Shown piece by piece: positions 2,661 through 56,258 of a stretch of 64,000 nucleotides of DNA (the first letter of the stretch is position 1; each line of letters opens with the position of its first letter). Location: assembly GCA_040384725.1 (NCBI GenBank), contig JAZKIS010000002.1:7682-71681 (forward strand), written 5' to 3'. The notes beneath the pieces were generated by a model that did not search any database, was not told the DNA's origin, and saw only the letters and a list, made by a program, of their open reading frames with translations. Source of the stretch: Patescibacteria group bacterium. GTDB taxonomy: Bacteria > Patescibacteriota > Minisyncoccia > Phycocordibacterales > Phycocordibacteraceae. Position numbers and translations under genes: made by a program.

Positions 2661-2662
2661 GT

Positions 2663-2911: not shown

Positions 2912-2923
2912 GAAATAAGTAAA

Positions 2924-2960
2924 GCACCGCCCGGGTTCTCCCCGGGCGGTGCTTTACTTT
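2924..2960 (+). terminator. Rho-independent terminator of atp operon
   Basis: GCACCGCCCGGG-ttctc-CCCGGGCGGTGC perfect 12-bp stem followed by TTTACTTT. Confidence 0.85.
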
Positions 2961-2989
2961 ACACAGGTACGTACCATACTTACCCACAT

Positions 2990-3409: not shown

Positions 3410-3466
3410 TTTCGTCTACGCATCCCCAAGCGAGGCTTTTTCTGGTTGTGATAAAATAGGGTACAT

Positions 3467-3697
3467 ATGATTCAGAAATTCCTCGTACGCCAGGCTCTTA
3501 AGATGAAGATGAAGGATATGCCCGAAGCGCAGCGGGAGCAGATCCTAACACTCGTCGAGAAGGATCCGGAACTCTTCAAGAAGATCGGCGAAGAAGTGGA
3601 TCGCCGCGTGAAGGGAGGCGAGAACCAGATGAAGGCCTCCATGGAGGTTATGAAGAAGTACCGCACAGAGCTCTCGGGACTCGTGGGTCCTCAGTAG
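3467..3697 (+). CDS. hypothetical small K/E-rich protein
   Basis: 76-aa ORF, unbiased composition, no SD; upstream TGTGATAAAAT -10-like element. Confidence 0.4.
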   Translation: MIQKFLVRQALKMKMKDMPEAQREQILTLVEKDPELFKKIGEEVDRRVKGGENQMKASMEVMKKYRTELSGLVGPQ

Positions 3698-3705
3698 TAG
3701 TCTCT

Positions 3706-4290
3706 ATGAAAGCGAAGCGCATATTCATTCTTCTCGGCCATCCGGATTCCGGGATGGAGCCGATGTCTCGTACTCTAGCTGATACCTATGAGCAGGCTGC
3801 AAAGGACGCTGGACACGAAGTTCGAAGAATAAATATCTTCGACCTCTCGTTCGATCCGGTCTTGCATAAAGGATATCGCGCGATTCAGGAACTCGAGCCG
3901 GACCTGAAGACGGTGCAAGAGAACATAACGTGGTCCGAGCATTTCGTACTCGTGTATCCGAACTGGTGGGGCGGCATGCCCGCGCAACTTAAGGGCATGT
4001 GGGATCGCATGTTCCTGCCGCGCTTCGCGTTTCGTATGTGGAAGAACCGGTTCGGCTGGGACGCGCTTCTGAAGGGGCGCACGGCGCGCGTCCTCATAAC
4101 CTGCGGAAATCCAGCAATTCTCGACCATCTCGCGTTCGGCGACTTCACGTCTTCGATCAAAAGGTCGTTGCTTCAGTTTGCAGGATTCAGGACCTGGGTA
4201 TCCGCGTTCGGACATAGCGAGCACGCGTCAGAGAAGACGCAGGAACGTTGGAAGCGAGAGGTACGTTCGCTCGGACGGAGGGGACGATAA
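3706..4290 (+). CDS. flavodoxin-like fold NAD(P)H dehydrogenase (quinone) family protein (MdaB/KefF/azoreductase-like)
   Basis: MKAKRIFILLGHPD...HFVLVYPNWWGGMPAQLKGMWDRMF matches the Flavodoxin_2 family signature (FVxPxWWxxxPAxLKxxxDRV). Confidence 0.75.
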   Translation: MKAKRIFILLGHPDSGMEPMSRTLADTYEQAAKDAGHEVRRINIFDLSFDPVLHKGYRAIQELEPDLKTVQENITWSEHFVLVYPNWWGGMPAQLKGMWDRMFLPRFAFRMWKNRFGWDALLKGRTARVLITCGNPAILDHLAFGDFTSSIKRSLLQFAGFRTWVSAFGHSEHASEKTQERWKREVRSLGRRGR

Positions 4291-4361
4291 GTATAGAAAC
4301 TAACAGAGCCCCAATTCTAGCGGGCGTATGTACGTGTAGATTTGAGGCTCTGAAGAAGTTG

Positions 4362-4580
4362 TTACTTCTTAGTGACCTCCTTGATTTCGAACGTTCCCCA
4401 GACGTTAACGAGTACCAAGAGGCCTATGAGGGCCGGTATGTTCGAGATCATATAGAACACGAGTATCTGCCACCAGGCAAAGGTCGTGAAGATATGCATC
4501 CCTGCGAGTGGCCAAAGAATGAGGCCGACCGCGAGACTTACCAGTCCGACGAGAATGTACTTGTTCGTAACCTTGAGCAT
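4362..4580 (-). CDS. hypothetical small membrane protein (2 TM)
   Basis: 72-aa ORF, two hydrophobic helices (ILVGLVSLAVGLILWPLAG; ILVFYMISNIPALIGLLVLV). Confidence 0.4.
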   Translation of the reverse strand: MLKVTNKYILVGLVSLAVGLILWPLAGMHIFTTFAWWQILVFYMISNIPALIGLLVLVNVWGTFEIKEVTKK

Positions 4581-4647
4581 TGAAAACTCCTTTCGCTAAG
4601 GTACGGGTGAGTAATACCACCCGCATGCATGCATGTCAAACGAGCCC

Positions 4648-4676
4648 TTGACAATTTATATAAGAAGCGCTATATT
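4648..4676 (+). promoter_or_regulatory. sigma-70-type promoter (TTGACA-17-TATATT)
   Basis: Consensus -35 TTGACA at 4648-4653, 17-nt spacer, -10 TATATT at 4671-4676. Confidence 0.6.
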
Positions 4677-4683
4677 CATTCCA

Positions 4684-4818
4684 GGAAAGCAGACGGCGAA
4701 ATAAGCCAAGGACTTCTTCACCGAAAGAAACCCAGCACGTGGGAACGGAAAGATAGTCTTCTGCAGACCCAAGTCCCCGCGAGGCGCAGCAGCTGCGACC
4801 CGGGGACTTTTATTTTTA
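4684..4818 (+). ncRNA. candidate small RNA or terminated leader between promoter and intrinsic terminator upstream of ychF
   Basis: ~135 nt between consensus promoter and hairpin GTCCCCG...CGGGGAC followed by TTTTATTTTTAT (4773-4818); no ORF can start downstream of the promoter. Confidence 0.35.
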
Positions 4819-4842
4819 TACATAACCGCGTAAGGTGAACGT

Positions 4843-5937
4843 ATGAAAATCGGCATCGTAGGACTTCCGAACGTCGGGAAGTCCACTCTCTTTAATGCGC
4901 TCACCAAGGCCGCGGTCCCCGCGGAGAATTATCCGTTCTGCACCATAGACCCGTCTGTTGGTGTCGTGGGTGTTCCGGACGAGCGCCTAACGCGCCTCGC
5001 TGAGCTTTCGAAGTCAGAGAAGACCATCCCCGCAGCAATCGAGTTCGTTGATATCGCAGGACTCGTTAAGGGCGCGTCAGAGGGCGAGGGTCTCGGAAAC
5101 CAGTTCCTCTCTCACATCCGCGAGGTGGATGCCATTCTCCAGATGGTCCGTTTCTTCGACGATCCTGACGTTATCCATGTGCATGGGGACGTTGATCCGG
5201 TTCGCGACATCGAGATCATCAATCTCGAGCTCATCCTCGCGGACCAGCAGTCCGTATCTGGACGCCGCGAGCGCTTAGTGCGTGATGTTAAGGCTGGGAA
5301 CAAGGATGCAGTTGCCGAGGATGCTGTGCTCACCCAGATCGAGCAGGCGCTCCTCTCCGGAAAGCTGGCACGAACGGTAGAGCTCTCGGACGAGGACGCG
5401 AAGCGCATCAAGTCACTGAACCTCCTTACCTTGAAACCAATCCTCTACTCCTTCAACGGAAAGGCAGGCGGACACAATCTCTCCGAGATGAATGACGGGC
5501 GTGCGCAGGCTGCGTACGACCTCGTTGAGTCCTTGGGCGGGCGTTATGTAGAGGTTGATGCGCGTACCGAGCATGAGCTGAACGACGTTGCCTCGGAGGA
5601 CAAGGATATGTTCCGTTCCGAGCTCGGGGTGCAGGTAGACGGGCTCGAGGCGCTCATCCGTGGCGCGTACGATACGCTCGGCCTCATCACTTTCTTTACG
5701 ACGGGCCCTAAGGAGACACGGGCCTGGACCATTACGCGCGGAGCATCTGCGCCTGAGGCAGGAGCAGCCATCCATAACGACTTTAAGGACAAGTTTATTA
5801 GGGCCGAGGTTGTTGGATGCGATACGCTCGTTGCAGACGGCTCATGGAGCGCTGCCAGGGATAAGGGTGATATACGAACCGAAGGGAAAACGTACATCGT
5901 GAATGATGGGGACGTGATGGTGTTTTTGCATAGTTAG
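4843..5937 (+). CDS. ychF: ribosome-binding ATPase YchF (Obg-family GTPase)
   Basis: [21 protein letters not shown]...; C-terminal TGS domain; SD AAGGTGA upstream. Confidence 0.95.
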
Positions 5938-41028: not shown

Positions 41029-42492
41029 ATGTCAGCATTCGATGAGATACGCGCTGAGAAGCTTCGCAAACTGTCGCTCCTTGAAGCGGCAGGCAAGAAT
41101 CCGTATCCGAACAATTCCCGCCGCACCCATGAGATCGGTCAGATCTTAGGAGGCTTCAGCGTGCTAGAAACTGAAGGCGGCAGCCTTGTAGCTGACGGCA
41201 GGATCCGTTCCATCCGTACCCACGGCGGCTCATCTTTCATCGATATCGATGATGGGACAGAAAAGATGCAGCTCTTCCTTAAGAAGGATGAGATCGGCGA
41301 GGAAGCATTCACGCTCTTTATCGACACCATTGATGTCGGGGACTTCGTCGAAGCAACGGGCGTACCTATGCGCACTAAGAGCGGGCAAGAGAGCCTGCTT
41401 GTCTCTGACTGGCGCATACTCTCGAAGGCCCTTCGTCCGATTCCAGACGAATGGTACGGATTCTCTGACGAGGACGAGCGGTTCCGGCGCCGGTATCTCG
41501 ACATGCTCCTTAACAAGGAGGTGCTCGAGAACGCAAAGAAGCGCTCGGTCTTCTGGAACGCGTTCCGTACGTACCTCCTTACGCGCGAATTCGTAGAGGT
41601 AGAGACTCCCGTGCTCGAGAACACAACGGGAGGTGCTGAGGCACGCCCTTTCATAACGCATCATAATGCGCTCAATATCGACGTATTCCTCCGTATCTCG
41701 GCAGGAGAGCTCTGGCAGAAGATGCTGCTCGTTGGAGGGCTTCCGAAGACCTTCGAGATAGGTCGCATCTTTAGGAACGAGGGAATGTCGAGAGAGCATC
41801 TCCAGGATTACACGCAGCTCGAGTTCTACCAGGCCTATTCGGATTACGAGGAGGGCATGCGCATGGTTACGGATATGTACCGTTTCGTTGCGCAGGAGAC
41901 CTTCGGCACCCTTGCGTTCACTATCGGCGAACACGAGGTTGATCTCGGGAAGGAATGGGAGGTCTATGACTTCTGTGAGGTTCTTAAGAAAGAGTACGGC
42001 CTGGATCCCCTTACCGCCACCTTAGATGAGGTAAAGGCTGCACTCAAGGATGCTGGGATCGAGAAGGATGCTGACTCTATGAGCATCGGGCGCGGCGTCG
42101 ATCTCCTCTGGAAGCGCATCCGGAAGGGTATTGCAGGTCCCGGATTCCTCATCGGCGTACCGGTATATCTCGAACCGCTCGCGAAGAGGAGCGAGAAGAA
42201 CGGGGAGGTTGTAGAGCGATTCCAGGTGCTTCTTGCAGGAAGCGAGATGGGCAAGGGCTTCTCTGAACTCAACAACCCGATTGATCAGAAAGACCGCTTC
42301 CTCGCGCAGCAGGCGCTTCGGGACGCCGGGGACGACGAGGCGCAGATGGCCGACATGGACTTCGTCGAGGCGCTCGAGTACGGCATGCCGCCCGCGTTCG
42401 GATTCGGGGTATCCGAGAGACTCTTCAGCTTCCTCATGAATAAGGATGTGCGGGAGACGCAGCTGTTTCCGCTGATGCGGCCAAGGGATTAA
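41029..42492 (+). CDS. lysS: lysyl-tRNA synthetase, class II
   Basis: N-terminal OB anticodon-binding domain, class II motifs (FRNEGMSREH, GSEMGKGFSELNNP). Confidence 0.93.
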   Translation: MSAFDEIRAEKLRKLSLLEAAGKNPYPNNSRRTHEIGQILGGFSVLETEGGSLVADGRIRSIRTHGGSSFIDIDDGTEKMQLFLKKDEIGEEAFTLFIDTIDVGDFVEATGVPMRTKSGQESLLVSDWRILSKALRPIPDEWYGFSDEDERFRRRYLDMLLNKEVLENAKKRSVFWNAFRTYLLTREFVEVETPVLENTTGGAEARPFITHHNALNIDVFLRISAGELWQKMLLVGGLPKTFEIGRIFRNEGMSREHLQDYTQLEFYQAYSDYEEGMRMVTDMYRFVAQETFGTLAFTIGEHEVDLGKEWEVYDFCEVLKKEYGLDPLTATLDEVKAALKDAGIEKDADSMSIGRGVDLLWKRIRKGIAGPGFLIGVPVYLEPLAKRSEKNGEVVERFQVLLAGSEMGKGFSELNNPIDQKDRFLAQQALRDAGDDEAQMADMDFVEALEYGMPPAFGFGVSERLFSFLMNKDVRETQLFPLMRPRD

Positions 42493-42502
42493 CTTGTGTA
42501 AG

Positions 42503-43036
42503 CTATTGCTTACTGGCACGTACTTTTGCTGCAAACTCTGCAATCTCCTCTTGCGACATCAAGGTGATTGAGAGATTCTCGGCGGCCTGCATTATCTTCT
42601 TATCGGCCTCATCCTTTTCACTGAGGTCTGCAACGACTATCTCGAGTTCTGCATGATACTTCCAGTCCTCGCTCCACTTGAGCGCAATTTCTACCTCTCC
42701 ATACTTAAAATTAGTTCTCTTCTGCGTACCCGCTATGATCTGCTGAGGCTCGCTGATGGCATGGCATATTGATCGCATGGTCTCATACTGATCTGCAGGA
42801 AAGGGCACTTCGAACTCCTGAAAAGACGAGCCTTCTCCGAGCGCGTTCAGCTTGAGGGAGAGTACACCCGTGTTCTTTGAAAGATTGTTAACTACTTTCA
42901 AGAGCTTATCGGGGAAGATGATATATTCTACTTCTTTATCATCTTGGCCGATCAGTGTCCCTTCCTGTGTCAGCTTTTCGAGGAGAGCAGTATAGCTATC
43001 CTCGGTTAACAGCGTGCGGTGTTCTATCTCGTACAT
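42503..43036 (-). CDS. CYTH-like (triphosphate tunnel metalloenzyme/CyaB-like) domain protein, paralog 1
   Basis: N-terminal YEIEHRTLL (ExExK-type start) and C-terminal acidic EVEIALKWSEDWKYHAELEIVV strands typical of the CYTH tunnel. Confidence 0.5.
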   Translation of the reverse strand: MYEIEHRTLLTEDSYTALLEKLTQEGTLIGQDDKEVEYIIFPDKLLKVVNNLSKNTGVLSLKLNALGEGSSFQEFEVPFPADQYETMRSICHAISEPQQIIAGTQKRTNFKYGEVEIALKWSEDWKYHAELEIVVADLSEKDEADKKIMQAAENLSITLMSQEEIAEFAAKVRASKQ

Positions 43037-43039
43037 ACG

Positions 43040-44296
43040 CTAGATAGTAGCATTCGACTTCCTACACACGACAGCGTTAACCCTATGTGAATCGTCTCCG
43101 GCGCGCGCAATAACTTCAAAGCCTTCTTTTTTTAGGTTCTGGACCATGCGCCCATAGGTCATATATGCCTTGCGCCTTCGCTGTCTTGCCTCATCGGGCT
43201 CAAAGTGGGTGATGAAATCGAATATGAAGAGACCGTTGTTTTTGAGGACACGGGAGTGTTCCTTGATGAAAAGATTTACGTACGCCTTCCCGACATGAGA
43301 AATGAGGACACCCCGGGAACAGACGAGATTGAAATACTCATCCTCATAAGGAAGATCGAGACTATTTGCGAGGATGTAGTGCCTCATCGATGAGTCTTTA
43401 TCGGCGTGCTCGAGCATTCGAGGAGAGATATCCACCGCCACTACCTGATAGCCCTTGGTATTAAGCTGCTTTGCAATTACGCCAGTCCCACAACCGGAAT
43501 CTAATGCGAGCTCAGAGTTACCGCTCTTAGTATCTGGCACCTGCGCTTCTATAAAATCAAGGAAACGTGAATATCCATCCTCGATATTCACGTAATGAGA
43601 CGGGTCCTTAATCACAGTGTCCCAGGTTTCAGCTTCTTTATCCCAGTTATCTCTTACTTCGCTGGCTTTGAAATAGCTTGATTCCTTCAGACGCTTTATG
43701 GCGTCAGTGATCTTTGGCAGGTCCGCATCATAGAGCTGCGCACTGAGGATGAACGCGGTCACCTGACCCCTTGAAATTTGCAGCGAACGAGCTATCTCTG
43801 CATGGACAGCAGAGAGCTCTACCATGTCGGGTATGAACTTCTTTGCAAGGTCGCTACTCTTGAATATAACGTTCATTGAAATCTGACCGTTTCTTACAGC
43901 GAAGTTTATCTCGCTCACACATGGCTGCTTACGCGAGTTTGGATCAGCAAGGATTATCGTCGCTGACCTAGTCAGTGGCTCTGCCTGCAGCCTCTCGATC
44001 ACACGCGATACCTGATCAATGCCGTTCATGGCACGCATGAGCGCATAATAGTTGCGCCCTGTTGCAGGATCTCCGGAAGGCGAGTAGATCCTGCGCATGT
44101 AGTCAAGATACTCGCTGCCGAAAAGGTCGATGTACTGGGGAGTTTCGATCTCAAATGCGTTTGCGTATGATATTTCTAGGTTGCGAATCTCGAGAAAAGG
44201 CTCGCTATCATCGACCTTGTTTCCTTGAATTGCAGTACGGATAGCCTGAAGCCAAGCACCCTCAAGGGTATTCTTAACGGCATTTGAAGATTTCAT
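43040..44296 (-). CDS. fusion: thymidylate-synthase-fold (ThyA/dNMP hydroxymethylase-like) N-domain + class I SAM methyltransferase C-domain
   Basis: N-half: QVSRVIERLQAEPLTRSATIILADPNSRKQPCVSEINF...KSSDLAKKFIPDMVELSAVHAEIA parallels ThyA [53 protein letters not shown] (catalytic Cys retained). C-half: motif I LDSGCGTGV, motif II-like FNLVCSRGVL. Confidence 0.6.
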   Translation of the reverse strand: MKSSNAVKNTLEGAWLQAIRTAIQGNKVDDSEPFLEIRNLEISYANAFEIETPQYIDLFGSEYLDYMRRIYSPSGDPATGRNYYALMRAMNGIDQVSRVIERLQAEPLTRSATIILADPNSRKQPCVSEINFAVRNGQISMNVIFKSSDLAKKFIPDMVELSAVHAEIARSLQISRGQVTAFILSAQLYDADLPKITDAIKRLKESSYFKASEVRDNWDKEAETWDTVIKDPSHYVNIEDGYSRFLDFIEAQVPDTKSGNSELALDSGCGTGVIAKQLNTKGYQVVAVDISPRMLEHADKDSSMRHYILANSLDLPYEDEYFNLVCSRGVLISHVGKAYVNLFIKEHSRVLKNNGLFIFDFITHFEPDEARQRRRKAYMTYGRMVQNLKKEGFEVIARAGDDSHRVNAVVCRKSNATI

Positions 44297-44298
44297 GC

Positions 44299-44913
44299 TT
44301 AGCTATGGTCTAGGTACTTTCGGTACTGCTTATCCTCGTCGCGCATATGGCGGAGGATAAGGTTACGAATAAATTCGGACCTATTAATTTTATACGTGAA
44401 GCTTGCCCAATCCAAATAGTTTTCTATCTCCTTTGTGAGTACGATATTGAACTTCACGACCGGCCTTGCACCGTTGTTATTCAGGAAGTCATTGAGAATA
44501 TCCGCGAGGTTGGAATCGTCATACTCGACCACCTTGAGGAGAGGAGAGGTTAGGCCTGCAAGGAAGGAGTCCTTCGGCTTGCCGCCTTTCTTTGGACCTG
44601 GAGCCTTCTTAACGAGGAAGAGGGTAGGCTTATTCTTCGAAAGCCCGAGCGTAACCTGATGTCCAACACTAAAGCTCGTAACCGTTCCTTCGATTATGAC
44701 CACATCTGAGGCGAGAATGGAGGCGACGACGCTGTTGTAAACCTCTTCGCGATCAAGAGTACTGACCGCCTTCTGCTCTACAAGCTTGATTGCTTCTTCG
44801 AGCCAATCACGACTGATACTATGCCCCATCTCCTTAATAAGGGAGCATATCTGCCTATAGTCATCCTTGTAGGTTTCCAGCTCGGAAGTTGAGCAGGCGA
44901 AGTGGACTTTCAT
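44299..44913 (-). CDS. fusion: DNPH1/nucleoside 2-deoxyribosyltransferase-like domain + C-terminal ribbon-helix-helix
   Basis: KVHFACS...ASDVVIIEGTVTSFSVGHQVTLGLSKNKPTLFLVKK parallels DNPH1 ALYFCGS...QADVVVAEVTQPSLGVGYELGRAVAFNKRILCLFR. C-terminus KFNIVLTKEIENYLDWASFTYKINRSEFIRNLILRHM is a beta-alpha-alpha RHH pattern. Start at MKVHFAC. Confidence 0.55.
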   Translation of the reverse strand: MKVHFACSTSELETYKDDYRQICSLIKEMGHSISRDWLEEAIKLVEQKAVSTLDREEVYNSVVASILASDVVIIEGTVTSFSVGHQVTLGLSKNKPTLFLVKKAPGPKKGGKPKDSFLAGLTSPLLKVVEYDDSNLADILNDFLNNNGARPVVKFNIVLTKEIENYLDWASFTYKINRSEFIRNLILRHMRDEDKQYRKYLDHS

Positions 44914-44987
44914 GCTGTTTTTATAACACAAGTGTGTATCATATGCAATATTGTGTATATATGTAAGTGTGTATACCATACATACTT
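44914..44987. promoter_or_regulatory. AT-rich divergent promoter region with three direct TGTGTAT repeats (candidate RHH operator)
   Basis: TGTGTAT at 44933, 44952, 44968 (spacing 19 and 16 nt); also ACACAagTGTGT inverted element. Confidence 0.4.
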
Positions 44988-46502
44988 ATGAACCTTAAAG
45001 GCAGACGTAGGGTTACTGGCCGCAAAAACCTAGGAACTGGGGAGGCAGTAGCTGTCCTTATGGTCGGGTTTGGCCCGCACGCACAGCGTATCCATTTCCC
45101 AGCCATTCAAAAGAATGGAGCAGAATTCAATGCATACGTAGCTGCGATCGTTGAGCTTCAGTCAAAGGAGGAGGATGTACGGTCGTATATAGCAGGCCTG
45201 TCATTAGCAGTGGAGCCAGAGCTTCTGTTTCTACCAGATAGCCAGGCAGGGTCTGAACTTAGTCAAGCATTCAGAAGTAAGCTCGACCTTTATGTACAGA
45301 CTTTGGGTATCTCTGCAGTTATCATTGCTACCGAGCCTCTCGCGCACATTCCGTATGCACGCTGGGCACTTAAGAAAGGTCTTCATGTTCTCATGGACAA
45401 ACCGATCTCGACGAAGAAGAATGCGTCTTGTGATATAGCCGCTGCACGCGAAATAGCTAAAGATTATGATGACTTGCTCGCACTTCTTAAGCGCTCTAGG
45501 CTTCAGAACCCTTCCTTAGTGTTTGATCTTGTTGCGCAGCGCAGATTCCATCCTGCCTTTTTACTGCTGCAGAGTCTTGTGACAGAAGTAGCGGAGCGGA
45601 CAGGCATGCCCATATCATCAGTGTCGTCGGTCCATAGTGACGGACAATGGCGCATGCCTGATGAGATTATTGATATCGACTACCATTCCTACAACCAGGG
45701 ATACGGGAAGTGTTCCCATTCCGGATATCATTCACTCGACATACTCTCTTGGCTCATTGAGACGACCACACCGGATTCGAAAAGGCCCGATGCGATAGAT
45801 GTTTTCAGCAACTTCATGCGCCCGCAATCGTTCTACAAGCAGCTAACACGAAATGATTATCAGAAAATATTTCCTGACTACAGCTCAGTCTCTGTAAGGT
45901 CTGATAGGAAGCTGCAAACTAAGTTCACGGGCATGGGGGAGATCGATGCTCTCCTCTCACTAACCTTCAAGAAGAAAGGAGTACCGATGACGTTAGCATC
46001 CATAAGCCTCCTCCATAACGGCACTTCACAACGCGGATGGGTTAATTCTAAAGATAGAGACCTCTACAAGGGAAACGGCAGAATTCGTCATGAATCCCAC
46101 TACATCGTTCAAGGGCCTTTTCAGGCAATATCCTTTGTCTCGTACCAGAGCAAGGAATACGGCCAGTCGCGGAATGATATATACGGCATGGGAGGGGAGC
46201 ACCACCTCGATGTGCATGTATTCAGGAATGACTCGCTATTTCCTGACTGGGAGGCCCGGAGAACGTATACGTTCAAAGATATCTCCGCAGTAGAGAGTGG
46301 CGGTGCATCACAAGGCCATCAGGAGGATGCCAGACGCCTGTGCATCAAGAATTTCTTTGAGCAGGTGCACACCGGAAATCTAAACTCGAACTCCTCCCTT
46401 GAAGATCACCGCACGTCTGCACATCTGCTTAGTGCAGTATATGAATCAGCATGCAAGAGGCTGGGGACTGAGAACCCCTTGGTTACCTTACAAACTGTAT
46501 AG
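44988..46502 (+). CDS. Gfo/Idh/MocA family NAD(P)-dependent oxidoreductase
   Basis: Rossmann N-domain VLMVGFGPHAQRIHFPAI...IIATEPLAHIPYARWALKKGLHVLMDKP typical of Gfo/Idh/MocA; start uncertain (alt 45060). Confidence 0.65.
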   Translation: MNLKGRRRVTGRKNLGTGEAVAVLMVGFGPHAQRIHFPAIQKNGAEFNAYVAAIVELQSKEEDVRSYIAGLSLAVEPELLFLPDSQAGSELSQAFRSKLDLYVQTLGISAVIIATEPLAHIPYARWALKKGLHVLMDKPISTKKNASCDIAAAREIAKDYDDLLALLKRSRLQNPSLVFDLVAQRRFHPAFLLLQSLVTEVAERTGMPISSVSSVHSDGQWRMPDEIIDIDYHSYNQGYGKCSHSGYHSLDILSWLIETTTPDSKRPDAIDVFSNFMRPQSFYKQLTRNDYQKIFPDYSSVSVRSDRKLQTKFTGMGEIDALLSLTFKKKGVPMTLASISLLHNGTSQRGWVNSKDRDLYKGNGRIRHESHYIVQGPFQAISFVSYQSKEYGQSRNDIYGMGGEHHLDVHVFRNDSLFPDWEARRTYTFKDISAVESGGASQGHQEDARRLCIKNFFEQVHTGNLNSNSSLEDHRTSAHLLSAVYESACKRLGTENPLVTLQTV

Positions 46503-46559
46503 CCTGGCAACTACTATGTAACTTCGCCAGGCAACAGCATCAAAAGAAAGGAGGAGACG

Positions 46560-47276
46560 ATGATCTTTACAGTTGGATTTGAAGGCGTAAACCGCACAGG
46601 AAAAGGGACTCAGATTGGTCTGCTCCGCACTAAGCTGGAGCTCCAATCGATCCCCACACTCGTACTACGGGGTAATGGATCGCGCGAAGCACAGGGAAGT
46701 CACAAAGGTGATCCGCTCTCTGCTTGGTGGGATAAGGCTAACGACCTCCGGGATGAGATGTTTGACGCAGGGTGGTGGGTGCGCGCGAGCGTTAGGCTCG
46801 CGCGTGAATACCTGGCATGGCGCGAGTATATCTTTCCGCGCTTTCTCGAGCGCACTGGTAACACCGACGGGATTATCCTAGTGGACAGGACTGTCCTATC
46901 TGCGTTCATGTTGCTACTTGAAAATGGCGACACGGACTGGAGAAAGCTGTATCCGCCCCATGCAGGACCAAGAGGTACTGAGATCTCCGGCGAGCTAGTG
47001 TGCCCTGATCTTATCTTTAACTTCATTGCCCCAGCAGCGGCCTTGCTCCCTCGGTTAGCACCTGACGATCCGAAGCATGACTTCAGAAAGGGGCTGATCG
47101 AGCGGAACGCTGGTAAGTACGCCATAGCGTCCGCACTAGTACCCCCTGATGTGCGCCGCAGAATCCATGAGTTGGACGCTTCGCTCACTGAGGAAGTCTT
47201 GCATGAAAGCATCGTGGCAACCCTTGGGTGCTATGCACCAAAACGTATTGGAGACGCGCTTCATGCGAATCCATAA
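46560..47276 (+). CDS. thymidylate-kinase-like P-loop nucleotide kinase with divergent P-loop
   Basis: IFTVGFEGVNRTGKGTQI aligns to the dTMP kinase I(A/T)FEGxDGSGKTTQ; LID-like basic region; 238 aa. Confidence 0.5.
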   Translation: MIFTVGFEGVNRTGKGTQIGLLRTKLELQSIPTLVLRGNGSREAQGSHKGDPLSAWWDKANDLRDEMFDAGWWVRASVRLAREYLAWREYIFPRFLERTGNTDGIILVDRTVLSAFMLLLENGDTDWRKLYPPHAGPRGTEISGELVCPDLIFNFIAPAAALLPRLAPDDPKHDFRKGLIERNAGKYAIASALVPPDVRRRIHELDASLTEEVLHESIVATLGCYAPKRIGDALHANP

Positions 47277-47281
47277 CAACT

Positions 47282-47316
47282 TTCACCCTCCGAAGAGTAT
47301 CGGAGGGTGAACTTTA
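47282..47316 (+). terminator. hairpin after the kinase gene (weak T-tract)
   Basis: TTCACCCTCCGA-agagta-TCGGAGGGTGAA perfect 12-bp stem then CTTTAG. Confidence 0.4.
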
Positions 47317-47338
47317 GAAATCGTGATAACTTGATTAT

Positions 47339-47908
47339 ATGAATGAATACGAGGTAAAGCTCACTGGCCTAGACAAGGCATCTGTAAGAGAAGTGCTCGC
47401 GCGAACCGGCACACTAGAGAACGCGGAGCATGTACAGCACAATCTCGCCTATCACCTTCCCCCAGGAAGGGAGATCGAGGGAGGATGGCTTCGCATCAGG
47501 AACGAGAACGGATGCATAGCGATGAGCCTTAAGATAATCGCGAGCGACCGCATAGAGGATCAATTCGAATACCGTCTTGTAGCGAGCAGCATGGAAGAAG
47601 CGAGAGGGTTCCTTGAGCTCATGGGCGCTACACAGAAAGCCGAACAGGAAAAGAAAAGGGAAATATGGCGTGTGGACGATTGTGAAGTGGTAATAGATGA
47701 GTGGCCATTCCTCGAAGCGTATCTCGAAGTTGAAGGGCCTTCAGAAGCATCGGTTAAGGCTGTAACGGAGAAGCTTGGTTTTGATTACGCATCAGCACGT
47801 GTCTGCTCAGCCTCACGGCTCTATACTGAAAAGTACGGTGTACCGGAGAAGACAGTAAACGACGAGACTCCTATTCTTATATTTGGGATGGATAATCCCT
47901 TCACCTAG
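47339..47908 (+). CDS. CYTH-like domain protein, paralog 2
   Basis: MNEYEVKLTGL start; EIWRVDDCEVVIDEWPFLEAYLEVEG acidic tunnel strands; shares motif layout with the 42503..43036 gene. Confidence 0.5.
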   Translation: MNEYEVKLTGLDKASVREVLARTGTLENAEHVQHNLAYHLPPGREIEGGWLRIRNENGCIAMSLKIIASDRIEDQFEYRLVASSMEEARGFLELMGATQKAEQEKKREIWRVDDCEVVIDEWPFLEAYLEVEGPSEASVKAVTEKLGFDYASARVCSASRLYTEKYGVPEKTVNDETPILIFGMDNPFT

Positions 47909-48015
47909 ACTGGTTAGATACTTTGGTTTAACGATATTGACTATTCTAATAAAAGAAGTATCGTAAATCCACGTTAGCGAAAGCATGGTGCTAACAACAT
48001 AGAGAGGAGAGGTAC

Positions 48016-48357
48016 ATGCGTAAGATTGTTCTTGCCGCTTTAATCGGTTCGGCTCTGATGTCTTCGAGCGCAGAAGCGTCTGGACGAAACGGAAGGATTG
48101 AACGGCTTCGCGTAGAAATCGAGCAGTGCCTTGCACGTCAGGAGCACTGTGAAGGCGCGTATCTCCGGGTTCGTGGGGAACGCGGGACCATGCCTTTCCT
48201 GAGAGTATCCAGGGAGGCAGGGGCCGGAAGCATTTCGTTCGACGAGCTCGGGGATCTGTACGAGAATCGTCCGCTTCTAAGGGACGTAGGAATCGGCCTG
48301 GTTTTCAGGAACGAACCGTCCTGGATCCAGATTCACGAGTCCGTAACAAGACAGTGA
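48016..48357 (+). CDS. hypothetical secreted protein
   Basis: Signal peptide MRKIVLAALIGSALMSSSAEA; SD GAGAGGAGAGG; promoter-like TTGACT-16-TATCGT upstream. Confidence 0.5.
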   Translation: MRKIVLAALIGSALMSSSAEASGRNGRIERLRVEIEQCLARQEHCEGAYLRVRGERGTMPFLRVSREAGAGSISFDELGDLYENRPLLRDVGIGLVFRNEPSWIQIHESVTRQ

Positions 48358-48520
48358 CGCAAATTGCGAAGAAACTAGGTATGAGGGCGGTCTTGGAATC
48401 TCCAGGCCGCCCTTCTTCTACAACCAGTAGACCGAGCGAAGGACTTGCAATTTATAATGATTGTGCTATAGTTTTATAGCCGTAATGGGTGCGCCATTAC
48501 ATGAACCTTAGGAGGGCCGC

Positions 48521-49147
48521 ATGGCCGAAGATATTGCGATCGGCTGCAACCTTGCAGCTGGTCTGCTTGTTCTCGTCGCGTTTGCGGTCTACAACCTCAA
48601 AGACGCCAAGATCAGCACCGGCACCTGGATCATCCTCGCGTTTGGAGATTCGCTCGACCTCGCGTCGTACTTCGAAATGACCGACGAGTGGTGGAAATCC
48701 ATCGTTCCCGCCGCCTTCGCCTTGGGAAGCATCCTCACCTTCGGGATTGGGTGCATCCGGAGACGTTTCTCGTGGCCCGACGGCTATGACTGGTTCATCG
48801 TTCTACTCGATGTGGCCATCATCGGCGTCTGGTCGTGGTCCGAGACGAGAGGGATGCCGTTCAGCATCGGATCGTACGAGTTTGCCCCGCCCGCGGCGGC
48901 AAACCTGGCGCTCCAGGCAACGGCGGTGATCGCCTTCATTCCGATGTATCGAGGCCTACTGACCGGAAGGGAGCGTGAACATGCGTTGCCGTGGGTCCTG
49001 TGGACCTCCGCCTTCGTACTGTTCTGCATCTCGTCCGTATCCACCTTCAGCACTGTCGAAGAAGTGGCATATCCGGTCGTGGGACTTCTTACCCACGCGC
49101 TGGTAGCCGCAATCGCGTTTGCTGCTATCAAGCCCCTCCGCACCTAA
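48521..49147 (+). CDS. hypothetical membrane protein (6 TM, high GC)
   Basis: 208-aa hydrophobic ORF, SD GGAGGG; upstream TTGCAA-16-TATAGT promoter-like element. Confidence 0.5.
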   Translation: MAEDIAIGCNLAAGLLVLVAFAVYNLKDAKISTGTWIILAFGDSLDLASYFEMTDEWWKSIVPAAFALGSILTFGIGCIRRRFSWPDGYDWFIVLLDVAIIGVWSWSETRGMPFSIGSYEFAPPAAANLALQATAVIAFIPMYRGLLTGREREHALPWVLWTSAFVLFCISSVSTFSTVEEVAYPVVGLLTHALVAAIAFAAIKPLRT

Positions 49148-49204
49148 TTGGCGGAGGGGTTTCTGCATACGGCATGGTATAATAACGACATTAAGTGATT
49201 TTCA

Positions 49205-49408
49205 ATGAAATCGACCTTTATTTACATTGGTTTGTTCCTGGCAATCTGCATCTCGATGTACTTTATGTACGAGCGATCCTTCGTGACCCGTGACTTTGAA
49301 GTAGTGAATTCCGAAGAAGCTTCTGTGGAAGAGGAACTGGCACCAGAGGAAGTCGTTCCTGAAGAAGAGGAAATGTTACAAGCCGAGATTAGCGAGATCG
49401 AAGAATAG
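49205..49408 (+). CDS. hypothetical small protein (one TM plus acidic tail)
   Basis: 67-aa ORF IYIGLFLAICISMYFMY then an E-rich tail; no SD. Confidence 0.3.
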   Translation: MKSTFIYIGLFLAICISMYFMYERSFVTRDFEVVNSEEASVEEELAPEEVVPEEEEMLQAEISEIEE

Positions 49409-49423
49409 CCCGATCACGACAAT

Positions 49424-50500
49424 ATGAAAGATTCTTCTCCAGTTTGGTCTTGCAACGAATGGGATCCTCTCGAGGAAGTGATCGTTGGCAGCGTCGAGGG
49501 AGCGATTGTGCCTGAGCTGGATGAGGCAGTGGATGCCATCATGCCCGAGCATGCAGAATGGTTCTTCAGGGAGTATGGAGGAAAGCCCTTTCCCGAGGAC
49601 ATGATTCAAAAGGCGACGGTCGAGCTCGACAACCTCTCGAACGTTCTTTCTGATCTTGGCGTAACGGTCAGGCGGCCTGAGCCAATGGCGTTCTCAGAAG
49701 AATACAAGACGCCGTGGTGGAAAAGCTACGGCCTCTATGCTGCCATGCCTCGTGACGTGTTTATGGTCTTCGGGGATACGATCATTGAAGCCCCGATGGC
49801 ATGGAGGAGCCGCTACTTCGAGCATTTCTCGTACCGAACACTCATGAACGAGTACTTCGATAAGGGCGGCCGCTGGCTTGTTGCTCCTAAGTCAACCATG
49901 GGTGCCGGGTTCTACGATGAGTCGTATGATTCAAACAACCCAACCACTAAGGACGGCAAGAAGCGCTTTGTTATTACAGAGAACGAGATAGCGTTCGACG
50001 CGGCAGATTTCATTCGCTGCGGAAAGGATGTGTTTGTTCAGAAGAGCAACGTGACGAACGAGAAGGGCATCGAGTGGGTGCGTCGGCATGCCGGCTCAGA
50101 ATTTACGATCCATGAAGTGGAGTTCGGCGACTCGCATCCGATGCATATAGACACGACTATCGTCCCCCTCGCGCCTGGAAAGATCCTCATCAACCCTGAG
50201 TGGGTTAAGAAGCTTCCGCCTATATTTGATTCGTGGGATGTGCTCGTTGCGCCGCCTCCAACCAAGTCTGAGGATAAGGCCCTCTATTTCTCTAGCGACT
50301 GGCTTACGATTAACACGCTTAGCGTTGACGAGAAGCGTATCATCGTTGAAGAACAGGAAACGCCGCTCATTGAGGCGCTCAAGGGGTGGGGATTTGAACC
50401 GATTCCTGTGCCGTTTAGGAACTTCTACCCCTTCGGAGGATCGGTACACTGCGCAACCCTCGATGTCCGCCGTAAGGGTATCCTGAAGTCCTACTTCTAA
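49424..50500 (+). CDS. amidinotransferase (glycine/inosamine-phosphate amidinotransferase family, AGAT/StrB1-like)
   Basis: Collinear match to vertebrate AGAT: SCNEWDPLEEVIVG, AMPRDVFMVFGDTIIEAPMAWRSRYFE, FDAADFIR (catalytic Asp), HPMHIDT (His), GGSVHCATLDVRR (catalytic Cys). Confidence 0.85.
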   Translation: MKDSSPVWSCNEWDPLEEVIVGSVEGAIVPELDEAVDAIMPEHAEWFFREYGGKPFPEDMIQKATVELDNLSNVLSDLGVTVRRPEPMAFSEEYKTPWWKSYGLYAAMPRDVFMVFGDTIIEAPMAWRSRYFEHFSYRTLMNEYFDKGGRWLVAPKSTMGAGFYDESYDSNNPTTKDGKKRFVITENEIAFDAADFIRCGKDVFVQKSNVTNEKGIEWVRRHAGSEFTIHEVEFGDSHPMHIDTTIVPLAPGKILINPEWVKKLPPIFDSWDVLVAPPPTKSEDKALYFSSDWLTINTLSVDEKRIIVEEQETPLIEALKGWGFEPIPVPFRNFYPFGGSVHCATLDVRRKGILKSYF

Positions 50501-50586
50501 CCGAACTCCGGTTCAGGCCGTGTGGTATCATTCGGCCAACAAAAGTTTATCCGCCCTAGAGACTTACGATATTAATTTCGACGCAT

Positions 50587-51432
50587 ATGGACATGGACGA
50601 AGCATTTAGCTCCATAGATCTTGTAACGCAGTGTCTTACCGACAAGAAGCGTACGGATAAGTTTCAAACGGTTATCGATCGGGTCGTAAAGCCGGGAGAT
50701 GTAGTGCTCGACTCCGGCACGGGTTCAGGTGTGCTTGCCCTCATGGCGGCGAGGGCTGGAGCTAAGAAAGTTTTCGCGATTGAGTACGACCCCTATATTG
50801 CGAAGCTCGCAGCGCAAAGCGTTCTCCTGAACGGCTTCTCTGATGTTGTCGACATCGTGGTCGGTGACGTGAGGAACGTTAATTTCCCGAAGGATACGGT
50901 CTTCGATGTCGTTATCATGGAAATGCTCACCACCGGCATGATTGATGAGTACCAGGTGTGGACCATGAATAATCTCCATGCGAAGGGATACATAACTAAG
51001 GAGACGCGTCTCATACCGCAGAGACAGGATACGTATATCTCTCTCGCTAACGCGGACTTCACTAACTACGGCCTCACCATGCGTATGGTGCGCCACATCT
51101 GGGAGCCGCACAGCACGATCGATTTGAGCATTCTTACGAAGACGGAGCTATTGAATTCGATTGCGTTCAATACTACGAATTCACTATCTTCCAATACGAT
51201 TACGGTCTTTACGGCGGAAAAGGCAGGAACGGTCAACAGTGTCTATATTACGAGCAAGACCATACTCGACGAAGAGACCGAGGTCGGTGATACGGCTGCC
51301 CTTAACGCACCGGTGGTGTGGCCGCTCGAGAAGGATATTGAGGTTGAAAAGGGCGATTCGCTCGAGGTTGCGATCAATTACAGTTTTGGCGGCGGTTTCC
51401 GCAACTTCAGCGTTCAGGTCCGCAAACTATAG
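50587..51432 (+). CDS. class I SAM-dependent methyltransferase with PRMT-like (arginine/guanidino N-methyltransferase) motif layout
   Basis: VVLDSGTGSGVLALMAARAGAKKVFAIE vs PRMT motif I [27 protein letters not shown]; post-I acidic, DIVVGDV, FDVVIMEMLTTGMIDE vs VDIIISEWMGYCL double-E loop; no THW loop seen. Confidence 0.55.
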   Translation: MDMDEAFSSIDLVTQCLTDKKRTDKFQTVIDRVVKPGDVVLDSGTGSGVLALMAARAGAKKVFAIEYDPYIAKLAAQSVLLNGFSDVVDIVVGDVRNVNFPKDTVFDVVIMEMLTTGMIDEYQVWTMNNLHAKGYITKETRLIPQRQDTYISLANADFTNYGLTMRMVRHIWEPHSTIDLSILTKTELLNSIAFNTTNSLSSNTITVFTAEKAGTVNSVYITSKTILDEETEVGDTAALNAPVVWPLEKDIEVEKGDSLEVAINYSFGGGFRNFSVQVRKL

Positions 51433-51447
51433 GGTATACTTTTTTCA

Positions 51448-53064
51448 ATGGATTTATTGTGTCCTTGGGAAGCTCCGCAATATTTGATCTTCTCGTCAAA
51501 TATTCCTACGCTCCATTACTATTCTCACCTGGTCGCCATTCTTGCGGCGGTAGTGTTCGCATTCGCACTCATCGGTCGCTTCCGAGAAAGCAGCACCGTG
51601 CGCTGGCTCTTCGTTACAATCTTCCTCTTCTCTATCTGGACGGCGATCGACACGCTGCTGTGGGCATCCAACAGGCCTGACCTGGTTCTATTCCTTTGGA
51701 ATACACAGATACTGCTCGAAGCACTCTTCTACGCTTCTGCATTCTGCTTATCCTACGCATTCATTACCAACAAGGATCCGGGAGCGATTAACGTGTCACT
51801 TCTGGCCGTCCTGGTTCTGCCTATCATTGCCGTTATACCGACGGGCCATGCGCTGGAAGGGATAGATATTGCATACTGCAATGCGCTTGAGACGCCATTC
51901 ATTATTTTCTACACCTATGCGGTGCAGATACTGATCGCGCTTTCCATCCTGTTCCTAACCTTTAGAGAGTCGGCCCGTTCGCAGGGCCGCGCGCTACCCA
52001 TACAGCTCTTTGCTGCAGGCATGATCATCTTCCTGATCGCGTTCTCTTCGGGCAATATCATCGGAAGCATTACGGATGACTGGGAGCTGGCTCAGGCCGG
52101 TCTTCTGGGAATGCCTATATTCATCGGATTCCTCGCCTACACAACGGTTAGGTTTAGGACATTCAACGTTAAGATCCTTGGAGCGCAGGCGCTCGTGGTG
52201 TCACTCTGGCTCGTTACGTTCTTCCAGCTTTTCGTAAGGTCTGTCGAGAACATGCGACTCATCATCGGCGTGAATCTGGTGCTCTTCAGTATCATCGGGT
52301 ATTTCCTTATAAAGGGCGTGCGCAGGGAGGTCCAGCAGCGCGAACGAATTCAGGTGCTTGCCGCAGATCTTGAGAAGGCAAACAAGCAGCAGGTCACCCT
52401 TATCCACTTCATCACGCACCAGATCAAGGGCTTCGTTACTAAGTCACGCAACATATTCTCGCTTATGCGTGAAGGTGATCTCGGTCCGATCCCTGAAGCG
52501 ATGAAGCCTATGATCGAGGAAGGATTCCGCTCTGATACGAAGGGCGTGACGACTATTCAGGAGATCCTCAACGCCGCTAACATCAAGAGCGGGAAGGTGA
52601 CCTACAGCAAGGAGCCGTTCGATCTGAAGGCGCTTATCGATGAGATTCTCCAAGATCTCAAAGCCGCCGCCGACGCTAAAGGTCTCGTCCTCCAGACAAA
52701 CACCGGCGATACGCCTCTCATGTACCCAGGAGATAAGGCGCAGCTCACGAACGCGCTTAAGAACCTTATCGACAACTCGATCAAGTACACCATGCAGGGT
52801 GAGGTTCGCGTTACGCTTGCACAAGAGGCCGGCAAGGCTCGCTTCACCGTAGAGGACACCGGTGTCGGTATCACTCCCGAGGATATGGCGCATCTCTTTA
52901 CCGAGGGCGGTCACGGAGCGAACTCAGCGAAAATAAACGTTGAGTCCACAGGCTTCGGTCTCTACATCGTGAAGAACATCGTCGAGGCGCATAACGGCAA
53001 GGTCTGGGCGGAATCAGACGGGGAGGGCAAGGGTTCCCGATTCATCGTTGAGCTTCCGGTATAG
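51448..53064 (+). CDS. sensor histidine kinase with 7-8 TM N-terminal domain (orphan, no adjacent response regulator)
   Basis: H-box LIHFITHQIKGFV, HATPase_c N/G1/G2 boxes (LKNLIDNSIKYT, EDTGVGI, STGFGL). Confidence 0.85.
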   Translation: MDLLCPWEAPQYLIFSSNIPTLHYYSHLVAILAAVVFAFALIGRFRESSTVRWLFVTIFLFSIWTAIDTLLWASNRPDLVLFLWNTQILLEALFYASAFCLSYAFITNKDPGAINVSLLAVLVLPIIAVIPTGHALEGIDIAYCNALETPFIIFYTYAVQILIALSILFLTFRESARSQGRALPIQLFAAGMIIFLIAFSSGNIIGSITDDWELAQAGLLGMPIFIGFLAYTTVRFRTFNVKILGAQALVVSLWLVTFFQLFVRSVENMRLIIGVNLVLFSIIGYFLIKGVRREVQQRERIQVLAADLEKANKQQVTLIHFITHQIKGFVTKSRNIFSLMREGDLGPIPEAMKPMIEEGFRSDTKGVTTIQEILNAANIKSGKVTYSKEPFDLKALIDEILQDLKAAADAKGLVLQTNTGDTPLMYPGDKAQLTNALKNLIDNSIKYTMQGEVRVTLAQEAGKARFTVEDTGVGITPEDMAHLFTEGGHGANSAKINVESTGFGLYIVKNIVEAHNGKVWAESDGEGKGSRFIVELPV

Positions 53065-56172: not shown

Positions 56173-56258
56173 GCGTCGGTGGTAGAGTGGTCAATTACAA
56201 CAGGCTGTAAACCTGTCGGCTTCGGCCTTCGTTGGTTCGAATCCAACCCGGCGCACCA
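56173..56258 (+). tRNA. tRNA-Tyr (anticodon GTA), class II with long variable arm, CCA encoded
   Basis: Manual cloverleaf: acceptor GCGTCGG/CCGGCGC, D-arm GTAG/TTAC with GG loop, anticodon stem ACAGG/CCTGT loop CTGTAAA, 14-nt variable arm, T-arm GTTGG-TTCGAAT-CCAAC, discriminator A, CCA. Confidence 0.9.

Follow-up and report, generated by a model that had tools for sequence, protein, structure and literature searches.

A ThyA-methyltransferase fusion of Patescibacteria as a candidate deoxycytidylate-modifying enzyme of a conserved three-gene operon

What does a bacterium make with a protein in which a thymidylate synthase-like domain and a methyltransferase are joined in one chain? The question is raised by a gene on contig JAZKIS010000002.1 of a Patescibacteria group bacterium (NCBI GenBank assembly GCA_040384725.1), within a stretch of 64,000 nucleotides (contig positions 7,682 to 71,681 of the forward strand; hereafter the window, whose own numbering is used). 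The gene encodes a small version of the thymidylate synthase (TS) ThyA fused to a class I S-adenosylmethionine (SAM)-dependent methyltransferase, and it is accompanied by genes for a DNPH1-like partner protein and for a triphosphatase-type protein, with which it forms an operon (hereafter the triad). Based on sequence comparison and structure prediction, we tentatively propose, at a probability of about 45%, that the fusion is a bifunctional deoxycytidylate (dCMP)-modifying enzyme in a three-gene nucleotide-pool pathway, in which the partner would act as a nucleotide-sensing regulator. The most informative evidence comes from the operon context of a probable pseudo-DNPH1 partner and a predicted triphosphatase, which was missed in an earlier annotation made from the letters of the window alone (the original prediction).

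Domain architecture and catalytic residues of the fusion protein

An open reading frame (ORF) of 418 amino acids on the minus strand spans exactly 43040..44296 (codon positions were checked) and divides as follows.

43040..44296, minus strand: fusion gene of a mini-ThyA and a class I SAM methyltransferase, 418 amino acids (ORF, Pfam/NCBIfam, homologues, AlphaFold, fold matches)
43682..44296, minus strand: N-domain, residues 1-205, ThyA fold, apparently of cytosine type (ThyA alignments, family invariants)
43043..43681, minus strand: C-domain, residues 206-418, helical lid and Rossmann methyltransferase core (Pfam Methyltransf_11/25/31, 3l8d profile, invariants, L009_MT214 homologue)
43478..43504, minus strand: SAM motif I, LDSGCGTGV, residues 265-273 (sequence)

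Pfam Thymidylat_synt (PF00303) matches residues 87-205 of the N-domain (E=4.4e-9, 36.3 bits against a cut-off of 24.3), and the NCBIfam model of the short methanogen-type TS (TIGR03283) is matched end to end (residues 8-195 on model positions 5-200 of 201, E=6e-23). Like the methanogen-type enzymes, e.g., MJ0757, the fusion has a compact core of ~200 amino acids; unlike them, it carries an Asp at the pyrimidine-reading position and a methyltransferase, and with a score of 81.4 bits, far below the curated cut-off of 174.55, it fails membership in that family. The C-domain is matched by Pfam Methyltransf_11 over residues 265-359 (E=1.5e-19, 70.9 bits against a cut-off of 21.2), by Methyltransf_25 and by Methyltransf_31, and a profile alignment to the stand-alone small-molecule methyltransferase 3l8d covers residues 212-407. 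As in other class I SAM methyltransferases, D266-G268-G270 and the acidic residue after strand 2, D289, are invariant. Also invariant are the basic residues R244, R328, R349, K376, and R405, which could hold a 5'-phosphate. A stand-alone homologue of the C-domain (L009_MT214, 214 amino acids) matches with E=2.3e-39, the motif of the helical lid (NWDKEAETWD ... HYVNIEDGYSRF) included.

The AlphaFold model of the fusion, computed with a 33-sequence alignment, has a predicted local distance difference test score (pLDDT) of 91.2 and a predicted TM score (pTM) of 0.90; the latter implies that the two domains are packed extensively in a fixed arrangement in the model. In a Foldseek search against the PDB, the best match was the CMP hydroxymethylase MilA (E=8e-13), followed by dozens of TSs (E ~1e-11), while the methyltransferase 3l8d (TMt 0.73) covered the other half. 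Pfam, AlphaFold, and Foldseek therefore agree with the original prediction that a ThyA-fold domain with a nucleophilic Cys and a class I SAM methyltransferase form one polypeptide: the N-domain falls among MilA and TS structures instead of an unrelated fold, and C126 aligns with the ThyA nucleophile C146. The motifs quoted there are present as well, with QPC (P125-C126) aligned to the PC146 of ThyA and LDSGCGTGV as SAM motif I. A proposed match to the RSxD motif holds in the form KSSD (K146-S147-S148-D149 on R166-S167-C168-D169), whereas conservation does not extend to the downstream “NIASYALL region” as such.

The E. coli ThyA sequence used for alignment was checked on 20 canonical residue numbers. 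On it, N-domain residues correspond to ThyA positions as follows: Y83 to Y94, R110 to R126, S111 to R127, K123 to L143, C126 to C146 (codon 43919-43921), K146 to R166, S147 to S167, D149 to D169, K152-K153 to L172-G173, P156 to F176, D157 to N177 (codon 43826-43828), Q187 to H207, and Y189 to Y209. Family invariants were read from 33 aligned fusions. In all 33, C126, S147, D149, K153, and D157 are invariant, as is the pair P125-C126, so that the catalytic Cys146 of ThyA has its counterpart throughout; the equivalents of Tyr94, Asp169, and Tyr209 are likewise kept across the family. The uracil-reading Asn177 of ThyA, on the other hand, is invariantly Asp157. An Asp at this position marks cytosine users (T4 dCMP hydroxymethylase, MilA, BcmA, and the 5-hydroxy-dCMP synthases), and an Asn marks uracil users (PMC5175136, PMC13326640). 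A Cys nucleophile together with this Asp, i.e., C126 and D157, is the combination found in cytosine C5-hydroxymethylases, and the invariant Asp157 thus points to a cytosine nucleotide as the substrate. At the position of Ser167, the ribose-specific MilA and BcmA have Ala and deoxyribose users have Ser (PMC5175136); Ser147 of the fusion family is the deoxyribose-type residue. Judging from these residues, the N-domain appears to be a C5-modifying enzyme that is active and of cytosine and deoxyribose type.

Two consequences follow for how the protein has been described. The original prediction envisaged two sequential one-carbon steps on one nucleotide, which remains plausible and has gained comparative support, but a uracil substrate, and with it the option of a conversion of dU to 5-substituted dU, does not agree with the cytosine signature at the Asn177 position. 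In public databases, the window protein is named “MAG: thymidylate synthase [Patescibacteria group bacterium]” (NCBI; MAG, metagenome-assembled genome), and its JGI relatives are called thymidylate synthase or UbiE-type methylase. Because of the Asp157 signature, the label “thymidylate synthase” is probably a misannotation, which would wrongly credit the genomes that carry the fusion with thymidylate (dTMP) synthesis.

Where does the one-carbon unit come from? A check of the folate-binding residues, which had been suggested along with the original prediction, was largely negative: only the equivalent of Asp169, D149, is kept. In ThyA, Asp169 hydrogen-bonds N3 of the pterin. The N-domain has no equivalent of I79/W80, carries K152-K153 in place of L172-G173 and P156 in place of F176, lacks the C-terminal 40 residues of ThyA (225-264), which close over the cofactor, and has Ser111 for the phosphate-binding R127. 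Judged by the full set of folate residues (I79, W80, W83, L172, G173, and F176), the C-terminal closure, and the phosphate-binding R21 and R127, it does not qualify as a ThyA.

The missing folate contacts could be taken to favor a flavin-type route, in which the N-domain would hydroxylate C5 of dCMP, as RB69 gp48 and HY126 AfhB do, and the methyltransferase would O-methylate the product to 5-methoxy-dCMP. It is chemically easy to O-methylate an enolic 5-hydroxyl (cf. tRNA 5-methoxyuridine), and the phage dCMP hydroxylase 9iqu (TMt 0.73) is among the best size-matched structural neighbors of the fusion model; in the viral structure search, however, T4-type hydroxymethylases match the model as well as 9iqu does. 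Flavin-related genes (GTP cyclohydrolase II, ApbE, FMN_bind) do occur near the triad, but in two related loci only. We consider this route distinctly unlikely, as the D169N signature diagnostic for all tested flavin-dependent 5-hydroxy-dCMP synthases (RB69 gp48, DLP3 gp80, and HY126 AfhB) (PMC13326640) is absent from the fusions, in which Asp149 is invariant. For the same reason, a 5-hydroxy-dCMP synthase was ruled out as the principal interpretation of the N-domain.

A conserved operon with a probable pseudo-DNPH1 partner and a predicted triphosphatase

Besides the window, 11 independent loci carry the triad (L001, L003, L004, L005, L008, L009, L010, L012, L015, L017, and the P0006 locus), and in every one of the 12 the fusion is the middle gene of three tightly spaced or overlapping genes. 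These loci include those of the fusions that differ most from the window protein, L010 (37% identity) and L015 (35% by tblastn; 29% identity in the N-domain). Beyond the triad, no gene is consistently conserved around the fusion in the compared loci. The corresponding features of the window are as follows.

44299..44913, minus strand: partner gene, DNPH1/Rcl-like, 204 amino acids (start at the conserved MKVHF; the mechanical ORF reaches 44979)
42503..43036, minus strand: third gene, probable CYTH-type triphosphate tunnel metalloenzyme, 177 amino acids (E3-x-E5-x-R7 N-terminus; C-terminal ELE strand)
44914..44995, minus strand: candidate promoter/operator region (conserved element GTATGGTATACACACTTACATATATACACAATATTGCATATGATACACACTTGTGTTATAAAA; direct repeat ATACACACTT, twice; palindrome CAATATTG)

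None of the 116 homologues in the partner family has a Pfam domain, and the match of the window partner to Nuc_deoxyrib_tr is weak. A profile of the family matches Rcl/DNPH1 in the PDB (E=1.6e-6), and the top 50 fold matches of the partner model (pLDDT 84) are all DNPH1 (TMt ~0.8). DNPH1 is a 2'-deoxynucleoside 5'-phosphate N-hydrolase, now known as 5-hydroxymethyl-deoxyuridylate (hmdUMP) hydrolase. The partner resembles human and rat DNPH1 as well as MilB/BcmB in its fold, in the invariant phosphate-binding Ser (S80), in the retained Asp70 (= D80), and in being paired with a ThyA-like enzyme that makes a 5-modified pyrimidine nucleotide. Unlike these hydrolases, it lacks the Glu nucleophile (E104 in human, E93 in rat) and, apart from Asp70, the Tyr/Asp/Glu triad: the Glu of GVGYELG is invariantly Gln86 (codon 44656-44658), Y24 is replaced by His/Cys, E55 by Arg, and H56 by Asp, so that 4 out of 5 DNPH1 catalytic residues differ. 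In human DNPH1, the change E104Q abolishes catalysis, preserves hmdUMP binding, and has allowed crystallization with intact hmdUMP (PMC10603095). As the partner naturally carries this substrate-trapping change of Glu to Gln, it probably binds a 5-modified deoxynucleoside monophosphate (dNMP) without cleaving it, and by sequence and analogy it is most simply viewed as a nucleotide-binding pseudo-enzyme.

These residues also bear on a free-base pathway of the bacimethrin/mildiomycin type, in which a hydroxymethylase, an N-glycosidase, and a methyltransferase would produce a methylated 5-hydroxymethylcytosine antimetabolite by the logic of BcmA/BcmB/BcmC. The same three classes of protein are adjacent here (an Asp-type ThyA homologue, a member of the nucleoside-deoxyribosyltransferase/DNPH1 superfamily, and a SAM methyltransferase), and MilA is the top fold match, but the glycosidase nucleophile is invariantly Gln while MilB E103A is inactive (PMC4081090), Ser147 is of the deoxyribose type in contrast to the Ala of MilA and BcmA, and a triphosphatase takes the place of a ThiD-like kinase or thiaminase, neither of which is encoded in any examined locus. 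We regard this pathway as the least likely of all the explanations weighed here; first raised by the weak Nuc_deoxyrib_tr match of the partner, it was ruled out as the leading interpretation by Gln86, Ser147, and the lack of ThiD and thiaminase.

The last ~50 residues of the partner, modeled as strand-helix-helix, form an extra β-α-α domain absent from DNPH1 and MilB/BcmB, which is a probable ribbon-helix-helix (RHH; about residues 154-192). PHROG repressors match this tail weakly (E ~0.05). A partner-family gene of locus L016 and a ThyA-like operon are transcribed in divergent directions, an arrangement common for regulators. Upstream of the partner gene in the window, the two ATACACACTT repeats flank a promoter-like -35/-10, and besides CAATATTG the element holds the palindrome TGTATAnTATACA. 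At least six loci (the window, L001, L004, L005, L008, and L012) have a related element ahead of the operon, with the consensus GTATAnTATACAyACTTACAyAy.TACACAAyATTGC followed by an extended -10-like TGTGTTATA. A sigma-70 promoter scan upstream of the partner gave no signal above shuffle expectation. The divergent neighbor at 44967..46502 (plus strand) is an unusually long ORF of 511 amino acids for a GFO_IDH_MocA-like oxidoreductase; its real start is probably further downstream, since the mechanical GTG start overlaps the upstream region of the partner. A GFO_IDH_MocA gene is also found near the triad of L010, along with a gene for a PrmA/TRM5-like methyltransferase.

The third gene encodes one of two unrelated proteins. 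It is of CYTH type in six loci (the window, L003, L004, L010, L017, and the P0006 locus) and encodes an all-α, MazG-like protein of ~128 amino acids in six others (L001, L005, L008, L009, L012, and L015). The window protein barely misses the Pfam CYTH cut-off (E=7e-5, 23.1 bits against 23.2), while its L003 orthologue scores 36.9 bits, and a profile of the triad CYTH family matches PH1819 in the PDB over its full length (E=9.9e-7). E3, E5, E130, and E132 are invariant in this family, and its motif is ExExR instead of ExExK. The MazG-like protein is highly conserved (62-77% among the six loci), and its profile matches YpjD (6e-7), the nucleotide pyrophosphohydrolase 5ie9 (2e-6), dCTP pyrophosphatase 1 (DCTPP1; 4e-3), and MazG (4e-3). 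DCTPP1 acts on deoxycytidine triphosphate (dCTP) and on 5-modified dCTP. By sequence, the third gene thus resembles the DCTPP1/RS21-C6, YpjD, and MazG pyrophosphatases or the CYTH enzymes, albeit distantly (E between 1e-6 and 1e-3). A second CYTH gene, at 47339..47908 (plus strand; 189 amino acids; Pfam E=3.8e-13), lies 2.4 kb from the triad in the window; its product is more canonical and distant from the triad CYTH (E=0.002 to the family profile).

The flanks of the triad differ between genomes, with recombinase or transposase genes nearby in L003 and L008. GC content is 0.475-0.51 across 42000..52000 of the window and 0.55-0.60 in the flanks, and this stretch may be an acquired island. Its ORFs at 46560..47276, 48521..49147, and 49424..50500 have no Pfam match. 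The sole tRNA of the window is a tRNA-Tyr (GTA) at 56173..56258 (plus strand).

Such a setting would suit an inducible defense or poisoning of the nucleotide pool, in which the partner would sense a nucleotide and the operon would either drain dCTP to an unusable modified dCMP or alter a phage nucleotide. dCTP-depleting defenses are known, and the variable surroundings and the sensor-like pseudo-enzyme fused to a probable DNA-binding tail are compatible with one. We hold it to be very unlikely nevertheless: depletion leaves the need for two chemical steps unexplained, no significant PADLOC match was obtained beyond generic methyltransferase models, and no phage association was found in viral structures, IMG/VR, or INPHARED.

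A possible route of deoxycytidylate modification

The closest comparison for the proposed dCMP-modifying pathway is with the dCMP hydroxymethylase T4 gp42 and with the CMP hydroxymethylases MilA of Streptomyces and BcmA of Clostridium. Like them, the N-domain of the fusion has a ThyA fold, a Cys nucleophile, an Asp at the Asn177 position, the Asp169 equivalent, and a short C-terminus. T4 gp42 works with the dCTPase gp56, and MilA/BcmA work with the DNPH1-superfamily partners MilB/BcmB; the triad has candidate counterparts of both. The fusion differs from these enzymes (~14-17% identity) in having Lys at the Leu143 position, Lys146 for Arg166, Gln187 for His207, Lys-Lys at 172-173, and no W80 loop, as well as in its attached methyltransferase and in its Patescibacteria host instead of a phage or an actinomycete.

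In the route that we propose, the product of the third gene, whether of CYTH or of MazG/dCTPase-like type, would convert dCTP to dCMP, following the logic of T4 gp56 and gp42. Cys126 would then add to C6 of dCMP, as the retained catalytic residues suggest, while Asp157 would read N3/N4 of cytosine and Ser147, Lys146, Arg110, Gln187, and Tyr189 would hold the phosphate and the deoxyribose. C5 would receive a one-carbon unit from a methylene-pterin-type donor, for which the invariant Asp149 would provide the contact to pterin N3. At the position of Leu143 the window protein has Lys123, and the family has Lys or His, i.e., a polar, non-acidic residue. As the polar Lys123 replaces the water-excluding Leu143 and the Asp169 equivalent is retained, 5-hydroxymethyl-dCMP would be a likely product. 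The attached SAM domain would methylate this product, either at the new hydroxyl, giving 5-methoxymethyl-dCMP, or at a ring or exocyclic N or O. Since the methyltransferase is fused to the ThyA-like domain, the fusion probably acts at the level of the mononucleotide. Finally, the partner would bind the modified dNMP and control the operon at the conserved upstream element via its probable RHH tail. The product might be incorporated into DNA after phosphorylation or might serve as a pool poison or signal.

Several observations weigh against this proposal. Since the canonical folate contacts are largely missing, use of methylene-folate by the fusion is not secure, and folate dependence is, on the residues, doubtful. 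The Leu143 position is acidic in hydroxymethylases (PMC13326640), and the fusions lack the Asp/Glu typical of the known ones. We found no precedent for a SAM-dependent enzyme that methylates an aliphatic hydroxymethyl group of a nucleotide, and the core operon contains no dNMP kinase. As for the regulatory step, RHH_1, although the most-matched family, matches the partner tail weakly and in 3 out of 17 members (best E=0.03), and a PDB profile search with the tail gave no RHH match. The partner is also more conserved than the fusion in every pair of loci (e.g., 79 versus 55% and 55 versus 37%), which is odd for a simple regulator; it may be a subunit of a complex.

The relatives of the mini-ThyA core provide a wider context. 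A phmmer search with the N-domain against 1.84 billion representatives yielded 507 relatives, mostly stand-alone mini-ThyA proteins of ~200-230 amino acids. Others are fused to Ham1 (P0187 and P0306) or NUDIX (P0223), and among these fusions to nucleoside triphosphatases the motif type was readable only for P0187 and P0223. Both belong, together with the fusion family and the nearest stand-alone proteins, to an Asp type with a conserved (G/A)KK; the cluster names of the stand-alone Asp-type relatives are uninformative. P0209, P0222, and P0288 are mini-ThyA proteins of Asn (uracil) type with a C-terminal PterinBD-DUF4346, P0209 having an N-terminal MtrA-like domain in addition, which suggests that an added domain can take over pterin cofactor binding for a minimal ThyA core. 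Literature searches on a ThyA-methyltransferase fusion or on DUF4346 found nothing relevant.

Back-to-back with the triad of L009, an operon at 944..4885 (minus strand) encodes an Asn-type mini-ThyA (241 amino acids), a B12-binding radical SAM enzyme, Ham1, the 214-amino acid methyltransferase, and an AAA_17 kinase-like protein, the whole resembling a uracil-type pathway that modifies a nucleotide in several steps. The mini-ThyA/methyltransferase link is thus seen both as a fusion and between neighboring genes. The earlier suggestion that both domains serve one nucleotide pathway is sustained by the L009 operon, which encodes a specific homologue of the C-domain (E=2e-39) next to, but separately from, a stand-alone mini-ThyA. 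The mini-ThyA core is linked to triphosphatase-type proteins of four unrelated folds (CYTH, MazG-like, Ham1, and NUDIX), and these recurrent links, fused and neighboring, suggest that the activities are consecutive steps of one nucleotide pathway.

Two further loci contain related clusters. In L016 (759..6439), a partner-family gene without an adjacent fusion is divergent from an operon with an Asn-type mini-ThyA (265 amino acids), a frameshift-split thymidylate kinase (50 + 92 amino acids), a QueC-like, a CYTH-like (IETEIK), and a 304-amino acid methyltransferase gene; a NUDIX gene lies on the other side. The neighbors of an Asp-type mini-ThyA+Ham1 fusion in L014 (1294..7233) are QueC-like, UDG-family, asparagine-synthase-like, and dCTP-deaminase-family (DCD) genes, a grouping that recalls the DNA hypermodification clusters of phages.

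The pterin-binding relatives raise another explanation for the altered folate site, namely a composite active site in which the SAM domain replaces the folate part and the methyl group of SAM is transferred to C5 of the Cys126-activated dCMP. The chemistry would be that of DNA cytosine-5 and tRNA m5U methyltransferases, and the product, 5-methyl-dCMP made without folate, could feed dTMP synthesis after deamination. PterinBD-DUF4346 follows the uracil-type mini-ThyA exactly where the fusion has its methyltransferase, the domain interface is fixed in the model (pTM 0.90), the fusion lacks the C-terminal closing segment and most canonical folate contacts, and mini-ThyA genes occur beside other methyl-donor enzymes (MtrA-like, B12-radical SAM); to our knowledge, moreover, Patescibacteria generally lack folate synthesis. 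We nonetheless consider a composite site unlikely. The pterin-N3-binding Asp149 is invariant, the methyltransferase has a complete lid and acceptor pocket of its own as well as a stand-alone homologue, and many Asp-type mini-ThyA proteins stand alone, so that the core is presumably self-sufficient. The family, with two loci in a scan of GTDB, is too rare to be a general solution for thymidylate or 5-methyl-dCMP supply, and we know of no composite ThyA-fold/SAM enzyme.

Distribution and implications

The fusion is not confined to the window. The window protein and 66 further proteins, nearly all of 400-430 amino acids, share the architecture at 37-61% identity, and P0186, P0188, and P0276 are representatives that are more divergent still and have both domains. 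Of these at least 67 proteins, all that are named belong to Patescibacteria/Paceibacterota. As homologues with the same architecture recur across independent assemblies, the fusion is not an assembly artifact. The pattern-based scan of 185,579 GTDB species representatives (one genome per species) recovered 2 genuine loci, in one Paceibacterota MAG and in one uncultured bacterium.

Viral data sets yielded no counterpart: no copy of the fusion was found in IMG/VR viral contigs, INPHARED sequenced phages gave single-domain matches only, and BFVD predicted viral structures contained no two-domain match to the fusion model. PADLOC and PHROGs returned generic TS or methyltransferase matches only. 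In agreement with the original prediction, which knew of no characterized enzyme with this architecture, searches of the PDB, BFVD, INPHARED, IMG/VR, and the literature brought up none. One BFVD entry, A0A6J5LU22 from an uncultured Caudovirales (“AdoMet_MTases domain containing protein,” 484 amino acids), aligns to the fusion model over 384 columns with an rmsd of 20.7, and it may be a phage ThyA-like and methyltransferase protein with another domain geometry.

Enzymes of the ThyA family that modify cytosine nucleotides have been described in phages and in a small number of antibiotic pathways; they are entry points to hypermodified DNA bases. Phage systems that combine a ThyA homologue with tailoring lead to 5-hydroxymethylcytosine glucosylation, to 5-carbamoyloxymethylcytosine (PMC8670742), and to 5-hydroxycytosine arabinosylation (PMC13326640). 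As in those systems, a ThyA homologue would set a C5 handle on a cytosine nucleotide for a second enzyme to decorate; unlike in those systems, the second enzyme is a SAM methyltransferase, covalently joined and encoded in a cellular genome. The system proposed here is distinctive in belonging to ultra-small, host-dependent Patescibacteria, in hard-wiring a SAM step, and in using predicted triphosphatases that are interchangeable between loci. The partner, a naturally substrate-trapping DNPH1 homologue, may represent a new kind of nucleotide sensor.

Characterization of the triad could put right the label “thymidylate synthase,” a widespread misannotation by which metabolic reconstructions of Patescibacteria are distorted, could show how a minimal ThyA core is supplied with one-carbon units without a canonical folate site, and could reveal a new natural nucleotide. 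It is rather unlikely, in our estimate, that Paceibacteria make a new deoxycytidine (dC) derivative (e.g., 5-methoxymethyl-dC or 5-methoxy-dC) for their own DNA, or else that the fusion is a folate-independent, SAM-driven C5 methylase. If such a derivative were indeed placed in their own DNA, the phage-style combination of a dCTPase, a ThyA homologue, and a tailoring enzyme would for the first time be seen at work in a cell.

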